Origin: a virus
Lineage: Duplodnaviria > Heunggongvirae > Uroviricota > Caudoviricetes
Length of the DNA stretch: 4,298 bases
Virus record (IMG/VR): IMGVR_UViG_2675903578_000005
Reading direction: 5' to 3' (one strand)
The position numbers were made by a program, and so were the translations under genes. Position 1 is the first letter of the stretch, and each line of letters begins with the position of its first letter. This document shows positions 1,757 through 4,298 of this stretch, piece after piece. The notes beneath the pieces are model-generated. The model was given only the letters and a program-made list of their open reading frames with translations. It did no database searches and was not told the DNA's origin.

Positions 1757-2127
1757 TGCGCCATGAGTTTATTTTACCTTATCCGCCGACGGTGAATACT
1801 TACTGGCGACGTCGTGGCAGCACATATTTTGTATCAAAAGTTGGTGAGCGTTATCGCCGTGATGTGACGCTAATTGTTCGCCAGCAGCGGCTGAAATTAA
1901 ACCTGTCCGGAAGGCTGGCGATAAAGATTATTGCAGAGCCACCGGATAAGCGCCGTCGTGACCTGGACAATATCCTGAAAGCACCACTGGATGCGCTGAC
2001 GCATGCCGGACTACTCATAGACGACGAGCAGTTTGATGAAATCAATATTGTGCGCGGTCAGCTCGTTCCTGGTGGGCGACTGGGCGTGAAGATTTATGAA
2101 ATCACAGGTGATAACGATGGCGCGTGA
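1756..2127 (+). CDS. rusA: Crossover junction endodeoxyribonuclease RusA (Holliday junction resolvase)
   Basis: 123-aa product with the RusA hallmark [23 protein letters not shown]...IDDEQ, which matches E. coli RusA [23 protein letters not shown] with the catalytic Asp residues (from memory). GGAGG at 1741-1745 lies about 10 nt upstream of the ATG. Size is typical of RusA (about 120 aa). Confidence 0.9.
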
Positions 2128-2503
2128 TATTCAGCAGGTTATGGAACGGTGGGGGGCTTGGGCTGCAAACACTCATGAAGATGTATCCTGGGCGTCGATC
2201 GCTGCTGGTTTTAAAGGGTTAATTCCGTCGAAAGTGAAATCACGCCCTCAGTGTTCTGATGATGATGCAATGATAATTTGTGGCTGTATGGCCCGGTTGA
2301 ACAAGAAAAATCAGGATTTGCACGATTTGCTGGTGGATTATTACGTAGGTGGAATGACTTTTATGAGTCTGGCACGGAAACATGGGTGTTCGGATACCTG
2401 TATTGGCAAGCGCCTGCAGAAAGCGGAAGGGGTTATTGATGGCATGTTGATGATGCTTGATATCCGGCTGGAGATGGACAGATACGTAGAACGAATTATG
2501 TAG
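2117..2503 (+). CDS. Q: Late-gene antitermination protein Q (QuuD / DLP12-type Q family)
   Basis: 128-aa product [23 protein letters not shown]...[21 protein letters not shown]...[25 protein letters not shown]...[25 protein letters not shown] closely resembles the E. coli DLP12 QuuD sequence as I recall it. ATG at 2117 is preferred over the track start at 2096 because the homologue begins at MARDIQ and AGGTG (2105-2109) precedes it. The start lies inside the last codons of rusA. A candidate late promoter follows immediately downstream. Confidence 0.85.
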
Positions 2504-2507
2504 GTGC

Positions 2508-2537
2508 TTGACCAGACACATTGTCCGGGGCTATATT
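2508..2537 (+). promoter_or_regulatory. Candidate late promoter PR' (with presumed Q-utilisation site) immediately downstream of Q
   Basis: -35 TTGACC (2508-2513), 18-nt spacer, -10 TATATT (2532-2537), starting 5 nt after the Q stop codon, as in lambdoid PR' arrangements. Predicted transcription start is about 2544. Confidence 0.4.
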
Positions 2538-2544
2538 CCTCACG

Positions 2545-2562
2545 CGCCAGCAAAATCTGGCG
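2545..2562 (+). promoter_or_regulatory. Perfect 6-bp hairpin at the 5' end of the predicted PR' transcript (possible pause / Q-engagement element)
   Basis: CGCCAG (2545-2550), loop CAAAAT, CTGGCG (2557-2562), a perfect inverted repeat. The loop CAAAAT is -10-like and sits at about +7..+12, where sigma-dependent promoter-proximal pause elements occur in lambdoid late promoters. Confidence 0.3.
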
Positions 2563-2598
2563 TCGGGATTGGAACCCCGGATAGAGACCGCGACAGAC

Positions 2599-2623
2599 AC
2601 ACGCCGCGAGCGTGTTTTTTATT
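2599..2623 (+). terminator. Intrinsic terminator (tR'-like) ending a short late leader RNA of about 75 nt
   Basis: Stem ACACGC (2599-2604), loop CGCGA, stem GCGTGT (2610-2615), followed by TTTTTTATT (2615-2623). This is the classical GC-rich hairpin plus U-tract geometry, about 75 nt downstream of the predicted PR' start. Confidence 0.5.
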
Positions 2624-2748
2624 GTCGTATGCACGCGCACATCTGAATTATGGTGGGGCGCATGGGGGAGCTGAAAAGCTCGCCGGTCGGTTTCCCGGTA
2701 GTTCCAACCCTGTGCGTCTCACCACCCGATGATTGGAACCTGACGGTG

Positions 2749-2777
2749 TTGACAGTTTCAGGTTTGCAGTTTACATT
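2749..2777 (+). promoter_or_regulatory. Candidate sigma70 promoter upstream of the ORF6N gene
   Basis: Perfect -35 TTGACA (2749-2754), 17-nt spacer, -10 TACATT (2772-2777). It would give a leader of about 200 nt before the ATG at 2984. Confidence 0.3.
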
Positions 2778-2983
2778 TCCCCGCGGTGCTCAAAACACCT
2801 CGAAAGCGGTATCCACACCCGATAGCCATGTGGTTTTTTTGTGTCCAGAATTCTTGGTTTATGACCGGGTGTGCGGCTAATACAATACCAGCAATGGAAA
2901 TACGCCCGCCGACTTTCGACGGTTTTGAGCGCCCGGTCACCCTCTCAAAAGGGGTAAATCAAAATATTCGAAAGGACATGTCT

Positions 2984-3510
2984 ATGAATCGCACGTCTAT
3001 TGAAAAACTCCCGTCACTTACGCATAACCATCTTCCTGTCATGACAACAGAGCTGCTGGCTGATTTGTACGGAACAGAGCGCCAGCGTTTGACAAACAAT
3101 TTCAATCGAAACAAAGAACGGTTTATAGAAGGTAAACATTTTTTCCTGATAGAAGGTGATGCGTTACGAGAGTTGAAGAACGAAAACTCTTTAAGAGTTT
3201 CTGTGAAAATTGCCCGTAACGTTCGCTCCCTCATCCTCTGGACAGAACGTGGCGCAGCCCGTCACGCCAAAATGCTCGAAACCGATCAGGCGTGGGAAGT
3301 GTTCGAAAAACTGGAAGACTGTTATTTCAACCAGAAACAGCCACCAGCGGCACAAAACACATCTATCGAAAATGATGGATGCGCATTACTGAGCCACTTC
3401 GATAAACACGGTCAGGTTGAGTTCACGGAAAAGGTACCCGCCGATGCGATGGTATGTACTCTGGAACGGTTTAAATTTTATCTGGAGCAACACGGGTGGA
3501 TCGTTGCCCG
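2984..3510 (+). CDS. ORF6N-domain protein (Bro-N/KilA-N-like DNA-binding superfamily; antirepressor-like), 3'-partial because the C-terminus lies in N-run 3511..3760
   Basis: ATG at 2984 with AAAGGA (2971-2976) 7 nt upstream. N-terminal region LPVMTTELLADLYGTERQRLTNNFNRNKERFIEGKHFFLIEGD...VRSLILWTERGAARHAKMLETDQAWEVFEKL matches the ORF6N consensus pattern as I recall it. The track ORF 2786..3841 is rejected as an artefact of read-through over Ns into the tRNAs, and has no RBS at 2786. If the N-run preserves length, the gene must end before about 3741. Confidence 0.7.
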
Positions 3511-3760
3511 NNNNNNNNNNNNNNNNNNNNNNNNNNNNNNNNNNNNNNNNNNNNNNNNNNNNNNNNNNNNNNNNNNNNNNNNNNNNNNNNNNNNNNNNNN
3601 NNNNNNNNNNNNNNNNNNNNNNNNNNNNNNNNNNNNNNNNNNNNNNNNNNNNNNNNNNNNNNNNNNNNNNNNNNNNNNNNNNNNNNNNNNNNNNNNNNNN
3701 NNNNNNNNNNNNNNNNNNNNNNNNNNNNNNNNNNNNNNNNNNNNNNNNNNNNNNNNNNNN
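3511..3760. other. Run of 250 N (masked or unresolved sequence) covering the 3' end of the ORF6N gene, the intergenic region and the 5' end of tRNA-Ile2
   Basis: Directly visible run of n characters. Confidence 1.
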
Positions 3761-3817
3761 CAGAGCGAGCGACTCATAATCGCCAGGTCGCTGGTTCAAG
3801 TCCAGCAAGGGCCACCA
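3761..3817 (+). tRNA. tRNA-Ile2 (anticodon CAU, lysidine type), 3' portion only; the 5' 19 nt or so lie in the N-run (full gene about 3742..3817)
   Basis: Visible sequence ...GAGCGAGCGACTCATAATCGCCAGGTCGCTGGTTCAAGTCCAGCAAGGGCCACCA has anticodon loop CTCATAA (CAT at 3775-3777), T-stem GCTGG/CCAGC with loop TTCAAGT, acceptor 3' strand AAGGGCC, discriminator A and CCA. It is near-identical to E. coli ileX over this stretch (from memory) and unlike elongator tRNA-Met. Confidence 0.7.
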
Positions 3818-3818
3818 A

Positions 3819-3895
3819 CCACCACTAGCTCATCCGGATAGAGCATCAACCTTCTAAGTTGACGGTGCGAGGTTCGAGTCCTCGGTGGTGGGCCA
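3819..3895 (+). tRNA. tRNA-Arg (anticodon UCU, reads AGA/AGG)
   Basis: 77-nt cloverleaf: acceptor CCACCAC/GTGGTGG, D-stem GCTC/GAGC with 9-nt loop, anticodon stem TCAAC/GTTGA with loop CTTCTAA (anticodon TCT), T-stem CGAGG/CCTCG with loop TTCGAGT, discriminator G, encoded CCA. Begins 1 nt after the preceding tRNA. Confidence 0.85.
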
Positions 3896-3897
3896 GC

Positions 3898-3973
<76 letters not shown>

Positions 3974-3976
3974 TAT

Positions 3977-4051
<75 letters not shown>

Positions 4052-4298
4052 GCGAGATTTGAGACGAAGGTTGTTATTTGCACTGACACAATATTGTGTG
4101 GGAATGTCTGACTCCTTACCATCTCCTGTTCTGTGATGTTGTTTTGTTGCAGTTCCAGTGCTCTTTTTTCAGCACCAGAATGGTGCATTGTCGGTCAGGT
4201 TACGTAGTGAACCTCTGGCAGGGGACTGATGATTCATCATTCTGGTGTTGTAAATATCTCTTCGGACAACTTACAAAATATTCTAAGCAAACCCCGGG

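Follow-up and report, generated by a model that had tools for sequence, protein, structure and literature searches.

A gene for an ORF6N-domain protein occupies positions 2984..3547 (+ strand) of a 4,298-nucleotide stretch of viral DNA (IMG/VR record IMGVR_UViG_2675903578_000005, Caudoviricetes). The whole of this stretch is called the window here. The gene is probably an antirepressor gene of the AnrP type, which is kept behind two antisense-RNA locks in a lambdoid prophage of Shigella sonnei. Our confidence is higher for the RNA logic than for the exact activity of the protein. The gene itself is ordinary, as it belongs to a known and very common family with one studied homologue, AnrP of Gifsy-1. 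In the 480 bases upstream of the gene, two tandem RNA units of the c4/P4-CI type are located. Control by isrK and C4 is of a known kind (P1/P7, P4 and Gifsy-1), and the layout varies in that a unit of the sRNA-Xcc1 type with a separate promoter is added. The control region joins three separately named Rfam families (isrK/c4-a1b1, C4 and sRNA-Xcc1) in a putative scheme of decoy, antisense RNA and ribosome-binding-site target.

The gene and its product

The window had been read earlier from its letters alone (the sequence-only reading). In that reading the open reading frame (ORF) began at ATG 2984 on the + strand and ran into a run of N at 3511, as is also found here, and an unseen C-terminal part was assumed. 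Unmasked copies have now been recovered. Five chromosomes match all the unmasked bases of the window with zero mismatches, and one of them (L004, gene at 6868-7431) gives the true sequence. The gene is 564 nt long and consists of 187 codons and the stop codon, and the E. coli homologues also have 187 residues. The N-run hides only the 12 residues RKEQLVERLMRF and the stop codon. Thus the C-terminal domain is almost wholly visible, and no hidden domain is present. The full-length sequence was also to be checked for a frameshift; none was found, and a frameshifted pseudogene is ruled out by the intact ORF in the unmasked copies. The exact 187-residue protein is present on at least 1000 contigs of S. 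sonnei.

The start codon ATG 2984 is a conserved, aligned ATG with a 7-nt spacing from the Shine-Dalgarno (SD) sequence. Two other start codons were rejected. The 217-residue form from ATG 2894, which an old annotation of S. sonnei 53G calls 'Rha family', overlaps the sRNA-Xcc1-like RNA described below, and an in-frame TAG is present in the E. coli homologue EC12. ATG 2978 is located 1 nt from the SD sequence and is not conserved.

The visible 175 residues match the Pfam ORF6N profile (PF10543, positions 5-86 of 86) with 74.6 bits (E=7.8e-21), compared with a gathering score (GA) of 27.8 bits, which confirms the domain named in the sequence-only reading. They also match PHROG 2379 'anti-repressor' at positions 3-175 of the 187-position profile (E=3e-79). 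In the Pfam scan at E<=0.1, ORF6N was the sole domain, and no AntA/KilAC, P22_AR_N, ANT (KilAC) or P22_AR_C domain was detected. The ORF6N domain covers residues 13-97 (nt 3020-3274), and it is followed by a linker (residues ~116-131) and a small C-terminal domain (residues ~132-187). At E<=1e-5, 4,660 relatives were collected, and two-domain ORF6N proteins are very common in enterobacterial prophages.

AnrP (STM2616) of Gifsy-1 also consists of 187 residues, and its identity with the window protein is 49% over 184 residues (E=6e-58). Conservation is higher in the N-terminal 120 residues than in the C-terminal 60. The expression of AnrP raises the RNA level of the antQ operon and induces Gifsy-1 (Hershko-Shalev et al. 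2016, PMC4825925). The suggestion in the sequence-only reading that antirepressor activity was worth checking was apt.

An AlphaFold model calculated with 27 relatives has a moderate mean pLDDT of 68. The N-terminal domain (pLDDT 75-90) contains strands at residues 12-21, 53-57 and 82-87 together with helices. The linker 116-131 is disordered, and the C-terminal β-hairpin and two helices (pLDDT 50-60) are not resolved. The PDB sequence search with the family profile gave no match at E<=1, and the Foldseek search against the PDB gave no match at E<=0.001. As a part of the overall reading, and with the same good but incomplete confidence, the protein is taken as a winged-helix-like ORF6N domain followed by a flexible linker and a small C-terminal domain, and as a member of the 'Bro network' antirepressor class.

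Two RNA units upstream of the gene

According to the Rfam search, four matches above GA are located between the late antiterminator gene Q (2117..2503) and the ORF6N gene, all on the + strand. In the promoter scan, only two strong promoter-like sites, PisrK and P2, were detected between Q and the lysis genes. The RNAs that follow PisrK are called unit 1, and those that follow P2 are called unit 2.

Unit 2 is adjacent to the gene. The promoter P2 (2749..2777, + strand, TTGACA-17-TACATT) is sigma-70-like and scores 10/12 in the promoter scan. Its hexamers stay in place among the leaders, although the spacers and flanks have diverged, and its counterpart in phage Nil2 is annotated as 'promoter by homology'. 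The leader RNA (2784..2840, + strand), recognized from its sequence and a covarying stem, contains the site a1 (GCUCAAAAC, 2788-2796) in the loop of a GGUG/CACC hairpin and the site b1 (UCGAAAG, 2800-2806). It ends with a terminator, which consists of a 5-bp hairpin (CCACA/UGUGG, 2813-2833) and a U-run (U7, 2834-2840), and the stem covaries. This is probably the terminator that the sequence-only reading described as tR'-like. The terminators ahead of the gene belong to the isrK/C4 and sRNA-Xcc1-type RNA modules.

The second RNA of the unit (2863..2946, + strand) matches the sRNA-Xcc1 family (RF02221) over its full length, 1-87, with 77.4 bits (GA 53). Its structure comprises an outer stem and two hairpins, and a CACCC tail follows. 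The loop of hairpin 2 carries the site b' (CUUUCGA, 2913-2919), and the junction segment carries the site a' (GUUUUGAGC, 2922-2930). The targets in the translation-initiation region (2944..2976, + strand) are a2 (CUCAAAA, 2944-2950), which is located in a hairpin loop, and b2 (UCGAAAG, 2968-2974). The b2 site overlaps the SD sequence AAGGA (2972-2976), 8 nt ahead of ATG 2984.

The three b sites change together. In EC12 all three are altered jointly, with the loop CUACUGA and both targets UCAGUAG. An alignment of 25 distinct leaders, collected with a 17-mer inside the RNA, was analyzed. Between b' and b2, 175 of 175 cells are paired, 5 of the 7 pairs show double changes, and 55 cells are compensatory. 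When the partner was slid by 1-3 columns as a control, 32-53% of the cells were paired. Between b' and b1, 97.1% of the cells are paired, with 5 of 7 pairs compensatory and 30-57% in the slid control. At least 8 specificity words are present among these leaders. The stems of the Xcc1-like RNA itself are almost invariant, and 95.9% of their cells are paired. Thus the variation is concentrated in the loop and the two targets, as expected of a specificity determinant.

Three other arrangements of this unit were observed. In L153 (10682-10901), a natural recombinant, the upstream site CAAACAG mismatches the loop CUUUCGA, and b' and b2 still match. In L106 (1032-1487), two different Xcc1-type units are located in tandem, and the second promoter directly follows the first RNA. 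In L161 the loop of the Xcc1-type RNA matches the upstream site, and a downstream target at a ribosome-binding site was not recognizable.

Unit 1 begins with the promoter PisrK (2508..2537, + strand, TTGACC-18-TATATT), which is located 5 nt past the Q stop codon, scores 10/12 in the promoter scan and is a candidate PR'. TTGAC and TATATT are kept at equal spacing in every isrK module, including the copies in nin regions. The isrK modules of other contexts are homologous only from 2521-2526 onwards, midway in the PisrK spacer. According to a comparison of 2508-2526, the window and EC12, which have the same Q type, agree fully in the -35 hexamer and the first spacer half, and Gifsy-1 and the nin-region copies differ from them there. 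The -35-proximal half of PisrK may be Q-specific, and a Q-binding element would be expected there if PisrK doubles as PR'.

The target RNA of unit 1 (2531..2620, + strand) was identified by Rfam and the terminator scan. It comprises a c4-a1b1 match (2531-2583, 50.1 bits, GA 46.7) and an isrK-like small RNA (2544-2620, 77.5 bits, GA 50). The loop of isrK hairpin 2 shows UUGGAAC (2569-2575), and an intrinsic terminator (2599-2615) with a T-run follows. The C4/P4-CI-type antisense RNA (2646..2729, + strand; Rfam C4, RF01695, 71 bits, GA 45) carries the unpaired segment GUUCCAA (2701-2707), and it corresponds to 'orf45'/STnc1160 of Gifsy-1. The downstream target UUGGAAC (2733..2739, + strand; a2/b2 or seqC-like) is the exact complement of 2701-2707 and is located 10 nt ahead of the -35 hexamer of P2. 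The three sites change jointly across four specificity types: the words elsewhere are UUGGCGU/ACGCC in Gifsy-1 and L086, UUUGCAC/GUGCA in L034, and UUAGGAAC/GUUCCU in L056. By its predicted pairing, unit 1 is the a1b1/c4/a2b2 logic of P1/P7 and the seqA/CI/seqC logic of P4. In both the C4-type RNA and the Xcc1-like RNA the outer stem is followed by a CACCC tail, which is a resemblance only to precursors released by RNase P.

A 76-residue ORF at 2650-2880 (+ strand) has the same two in-frame AUGs as orf45 of Gifsy-1, and it overlaps the C4-like RNA, P2 and the 5' stem of the Xcc1-like RNA. The equivalents of this ORF span 14-76 residues among the leaders. The variable length indicates that the RNA, not the coding sequence, is what is conserved, and a conserved coding leader was rejected for the same reason. 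Judging from the alignments, the ORF is probably not a conserved coding sequence. It stops 104 nt before ATG 2984, and therefore translational coupling of the orf45 type cannot operate here.

Distribution of the RNA modules

Among the relatives of the ORF6N gene in viral contigs, 29 of 30 distinct upstream regions carry isrK-C4, Xcc1 or both. The isrK-C4-Xcc1 arrangement of the window is found in 5 of the 30. An isrK-C4-ant module is located in the nin region of PhiR12_1 and beside int in Stx phages of the phi346/PA2 type. In Nil2 and 2851, the nin region carries isrK-C4-antA, then a promoter, Xcc1 and antB, which encodes an ORF6N protein. From this distribution, the isrK-C4 and Xcc1 modules are best described as mobile cassettes which travel with antirepressor-type genes, and not as a Q-specific PR'-tR' region.

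The records of the Stx2c phages Nil2 and 2851 (L011 3019-4951, L035 140-3385) treat antA and antB as parts of a single ant gene that an insertion has separated. The two genes look like two separately gated genes, with predicted isrK-C4 control of antA and promoter-Xcc1 control of antB. In phage 2851, IS629 is present between them. A complete isrK-C4-Xcc1-ORF6N module stands alone at the edge of a prophage remnant in E. coli RM8082 (L002, 3500-4530). It is located between an ompW fragment and inverted tail-fibre genes, and it lacks an upstream Q gene.

A second set of 111 distinct Xcc1-family elements was collected with a hairpin-1 seed that does not depend on a' and b', and was subjected to an alignment-free test. 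A word of at least 7 nt in the hairpin-2/junction segment is complementary to both the upstream leader and the downstream region in 59 of the 111 elements (53%), as against 0.6% of composition-matched shuffles. With words of at least 6 nt, the number increases to 94 (85%). The set contains 57 distinct specificity words. In most cases the downstream ORF starts 79-98 nt past the seed, and the target abuts GGAG/AGGA.

The genes behind Xcc1-type leaders encode Bro-N+P22_AR_C proteins in 63 of 104 cases, AntA+P22_AR_C proteins in 17 and Rha-like proteins in 4. A family of 84-residue proteins without assignment (9 cases) and singletons were also found. Antirepressor-type proteins which swap domains in this manner have been termed the 'Bro network' (PMC10111431). 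The shared regulation and the homology to AnrP would place the ORF6N gene of the window in this functional class.

Proposed regulation

In the lysogen, PisrK and P2 would fire, and most transcripts would end at the leader terminators. The resulting short RNAs would show the target words in their loops. The transcripts which read through would give stable antisense RNAs, presumably by processing. The a' and b' sites of the Xcc1-type RNA would pair with a2 and b2. As b2 overlaps the SD sequence, we propose that the antisense RNA blocks ribosome binding. Surplus short leader RNA should act as a decoy, which titrates the antisense RNA and opens the initiation site. In Gifsy-1, IsrK supplied in trans increases the translation of anrP ~140-fold (PMC4825925), and the decoy action would explain this effect. 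By homology to AnrP, the protein thus made would lift the prophage repression and turn on the early operon including Q. The polymerase modified by Q should then read through all these terminators, and it is plausible that the gene is also read by this polymerase. On this analysis, the gene is judged to belong to the phage's own lysis-lysogeny circuitry.

The 7-nt loop and target words differ between phages, and co-resident prophages would therefore each control only their own gene. If this is true, matching 7-mers predict which prophages of a polylysogen cross-induce and which stay insulated. The rule is relevant to Stx phages, which bear the same modules ahead of their ant genes.

A wider proposal concerns the RNA family, and we consider its chances as a whole to be evenly balanced. 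RF02221 may be a second lineage of immunity RNAs of the c4/CI type, which are made from the leader of the gated gene, and not a trans-acting virulence small RNA. Its hypervariable loop of ~7 nt would be complementary to a leader decoy and to the SD region, with dozens of specificities that do not cross-react. In many phages it would gate antirepressors of the Bro network (ORF6N, Bro-N/P22_AR_C, AntA and Rha), and possibly also symE in integrons of Xanthomonas. If so, a widely annotated but functionally obscure family gains a concrete role.

Assessment of the reading and its alternatives

Several points weigh against an AnrP-type antirepressor gene under RNA control. To our knowledge, no ORF6N protein is known to bind a repressor. 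The identity to AnrP is only 49%, and the C-terminal domains are divergent. The structure model is moderate only (pLDDT 68, and 50-60 in the C-terminal domain). The alignment of unit 2 was seeded by a 17-mer within the RNA, so its sequences are related. In Gifsy-1, the authors explain the control by mRNA refolding and translational coupling via orf45, and the co-expression of STnc1160 left the toxicity of IsrK unrelieved (PMC4825925).

The protein may alternatively be a sequence-specific DNA-binding regulator of phage or host promoters, similar to Rha, Roi or Bro, which does not bind a repressor. We regard this as unlikely, though worth keeping in mind.

The sequence-only reading had taken the gene as a cargo gene, or moron, in the Q-dependent late transcript, with its codons tuned to the phage tRNAs. 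As a moron, the gene would be expressed with the late genes or for the benefit of the host. The layout is that of a classic moron: the gene lies in the common orientation between Q and the lysis cassette, has terminators on either side and possesses a promoter of its own. PisrK, immediately past Q, may be PR'. The sequence-only reading correctly placed the gene between Q and the Ile2, Arg, Thr and Gly tRNAs. Its codon counts made by hand were also exact: in the visible codons, ACA is used for 6 of 11 Thr, ATA for 2 of 7 Ile and GGA for 2 of 7 Gly. AGA accounts for 1 of the 15 Arg codons. The excess of ACA among the Thr codons may be counted for a moron. With the values of the Kazusa table as the E. 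coli reference frequencies, the binomial test shows an enrichment of ACA alone (p=0.0013), whereas the enrichment claimed for the other rare codons was not borne out for ATA (p=0.09) or GGA (p=0.17); for AGA, p=0.44. The other genes of the same prophage (2,013 codons) use ACA at 26%, ATA at 12%, GGA at 15% and AGA at 6.5%. Compared with these genes, p=0.05 was obtained for ACA and p=0.03 for the pooled codons.

Homologues without the tRNA array show an equal or stronger bias. EC12 has ACA 5/9, GGA 4/7 and AGA 3/15, and RM8082 has ACA 4/10, GGA 4/7 and AGA 3/15. The same four-tRNA array is located behind a DUF1133 gene in E. coli RMDEC465, where the ORF6N gene is found 2.5 kb upstream in the nin region. 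Gene-specific co-adaptation of codons and tRNAs was therefore rejected. The tRNA array and the ORF6N gene are independent modules, and the codon bias characterizes the phage and the gene family and does not reflect a fit of this gene to the adjoining tRNAs. Moreover, the nearest studied relative, AnrP, governs prophage induction and not a host trait, the gene and its leader module are found in the nin region or beside int in other phages, and the gene appears to be translationally gated by a cognate antisense RNA. The moron interpretation is thus very unlikely.

An inert remnant, namely a recombination scar in a decaying prophage riddled with insertion sequences (IS), is hardly probable either. 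In its favour, several S. sonnei copies have replication genes broken by IS elements, the antA-type gene that comes after unit 1 in Nil2 and 2851 has been lost here, and a copy in E. coli RM8082 is located at a prophage stump beside ompW. However, at least 1000 contigs carry the identical, intact ORF. All three complementary sites are intact in both units, and the promoters, SD sequence and terminators are preserved.

The least probable reading, with very little in its favour, is a toxic or abortive-infection effector silenced by an RNA antitoxin, in a logic like that of type I toxin-antitoxin systems; relatives in the KilA-N family include host-killing proteins, and the antisense RNA is predicted to occlude the ribosome-binding site. 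The sRNA-Xcc1 RNA is also located upstream of the toxin gene symE in Xanthomonas integron cassettes (bioRxiv 10.1101/2025.06.18.660453), but AnrP alone is non-toxic: a locus-deleted Salmonella strain with anrP expression formed normal colonies, and the toxicity came from AntQ (PMC4825925).

The prophage region in the window

The window belongs to a lambdoid prophage and spans its late-regulatory region. A DnaB-like gene, which is masked in part, a small ORF, the RusA gene (1756-2127), Q, a gene-less stretch of 480 nt, the ORF6N gene, an N-run and the tRNAs are arranged in this order. Q (2117..2503, + strand; Pfam Phage_antitermQ, PF06530, E=2.2e-52) is the upstream neighbour, as in Gifsy-1. 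In the exact-protein look-up of public assemblies, the exact Q protein was found on S. sonnei chromosomes carrying the same locus. The small ORF (1514-1756, + strand, 80 residues), located between the DnaB-like gene and RusA, is called in all S. sonnei assemblies. Pfam gave no significant match for it, only weak coiled-coil-like matches. In some S. sonnei strains an IS3-family element interrupts the DnaB-like gene (L005 and L008, 2728-4223), and more IS copies flank the region. The prophage is probably defective in these strains.

The lengths of the N-runs are not true. The 250-N run (3511-3760) corresponds to 246 real bases, and the 191-N run (1203-1393) inside the DnaB-like gene corresponds to 248 real bases. 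Window coordinates past each run are thus offset from those of the real sequence. According to L004, the masked stretch 3511-3760 holds an intrinsic terminator, a weak promoter-like site and the 5' end of a tRNA with the anticodon CAT. The terminator, found in the terminator scan of L004 (7507-7528 and a T-run), follows the ORF6N gene at 3623..3648 (+ strand). As the N-run exceeds the real sequence by 4 nt, these coordinates hold only approximately.

The tRNA array (3741..4051, + strand) was identified with ARAGORN and consists of Ile2(CAU) at 3741-3817 (first 20 nt masked), Arg(UCU) at 3819-3895, Thr(UGU) at 3898-3973 and Gly(UCC) at 3977-4051. PGAP annotates tRNA-Ile/Arg/Thr/Gly in E. coli arrays which are 99.7% identical, and the Ile2 identity proposed in the sequence-only reading for the partly masked CAT tRNA agrees with this annotation. 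From the last tRNA to the holin gene, ~680 bases (window 4052-4298, L004 7932-8611) show inconsistent gene calls, and an ORF of 98 or 69 residues is called in some assemblies only. In L004 this stretch contains terminator-like hairpins at 8190-8209, 8253-8271 and 8545-8571, a convergent one on the minus strand at 8365-8344, and a weak promoter-like site at 8310-8338.

Comparison with known systems

The closest known system is that of Gifsy-1. A promoter just after antQ makes the 77-nt small RNA IsrK and drives anrP, and some transcripts read past the isrK terminator into orf45-anrP and are untranslated. Processing of the isrK read-through transcript yields STnc1160 (~80 nt), which the authors liken to the CI RNA of P4. 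The orf45 ORF itself is translated (PMC4825925). In Gifsy-1 the order is Q (STM2617), a 270-nt spacer, the 187-residue protein STM2616 ('similar to antirepressor'), isrJ, tRNA-Arg and the lysis genes. The window likewise has Q, PisrK, isrK and its terminator, a C4-like region, a 187-residue ORF6N protein, tRNAs and lysis genes. The leaders can be aligned through the promoter, isrK and C4, and the loop and target words covary. In contrast to Gifsy-1, the window has ~205 extra bases (P2, the leader terminator and the Xcc1-type RNA) before the two sequences rejoin at the ribosome-binding site. Its orf45-like ORF has 76 residues, and the stop codon does not overlap the gene start. The Q protein of the window (128 residues) belongs to PF06530, whereas that of Gifsy-1 has 225 residues and is Q82-like. 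Four tRNAs are present instead of one, and the C-terminal domain of the ORF6N protein is divergent.

In immI of P1/P7 (c4, icd, ant; Citron & Schuster 1990), the antisense RNA is also derived from the same transcript as its targets. The targets are located upstream (a1b1) and downstream (a2b2), and b2 covers the ribosome-binding site. The specificity words differ among heteroimmune phages, and the gated gene is an antirepressor, as would be the case in the window by homology. On the other hand, an icd-like leader ORF was not found in the window, and ORF6N takes the place of the AntA/KilAC-type Ant1/2. The window stacks two RNA families in tandem, and it represents a lambdoid late region, not a plasmid prophage.

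In the immunity of P4, the small RNA arises by processing and pairs with the nascent transcript at two flanking sites, and a terminator is located past the first target; the same is predicted for the window. P4 CI, however, causes premature termination and is the immunity factor, whereas unit 2 of the window would target the ribosome-binding site of a protein gene. Relatives of P4 CI and seqA are picked up by the Rfam C4 and isrK models (PMC10111431).

The RNA of unit 2 resembles sRNA-Xcc1 (RF02221) in its score (77.4 bits compared with 53), its length (~85-88 nt) and its three-way-junction shape. Northern blots showed the founding member, from an integron of Xanthomonas campestris, as a discrete RNA of 88 nt (PMC2996969). 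In the open-access papers searched, sRNA-Xcc1 is described as a trans-acting virulence small RNA controlled by HrpG/HrpX, whereas the window data point to a c4-like gate in a cis leader. The family is outside the C4 clan of Rfam. Elsewhere sRNA-Xcc1 has been noted upstream of symE in integron cassettes or of an ORF6N gene in APSE phages. No statement of a c4-like action of sRNA-Xcc1 was found in the searchable open-access literature, and a prior description is possible.

In immI of P22 (ant, sar, Arc and Mnt), a small antisense RNA contributes to the silencing of the antirepressor in the lysogen, and such silencing would also apply to the window. P22_AR_C architectures, as in P22 immI, are present among the genes gated by Xcc1-type leaders. 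The window differs from P22 in that the RNA is another one, the protein lacks P22_AR and ANT domains, and the window shows no evident protein repressors.

Finally, the late regions of Stx phages (ileZ-argN-argO, and morons past PR'-tR') have rare-codon Ile2 and Arg UCU tRNAs between Q and the lysis genes, as the window does. Unlike these regions, the array of the window adds Thr(UGU) and Gly(UCC), and it is a module separate from the ORF6N gene.

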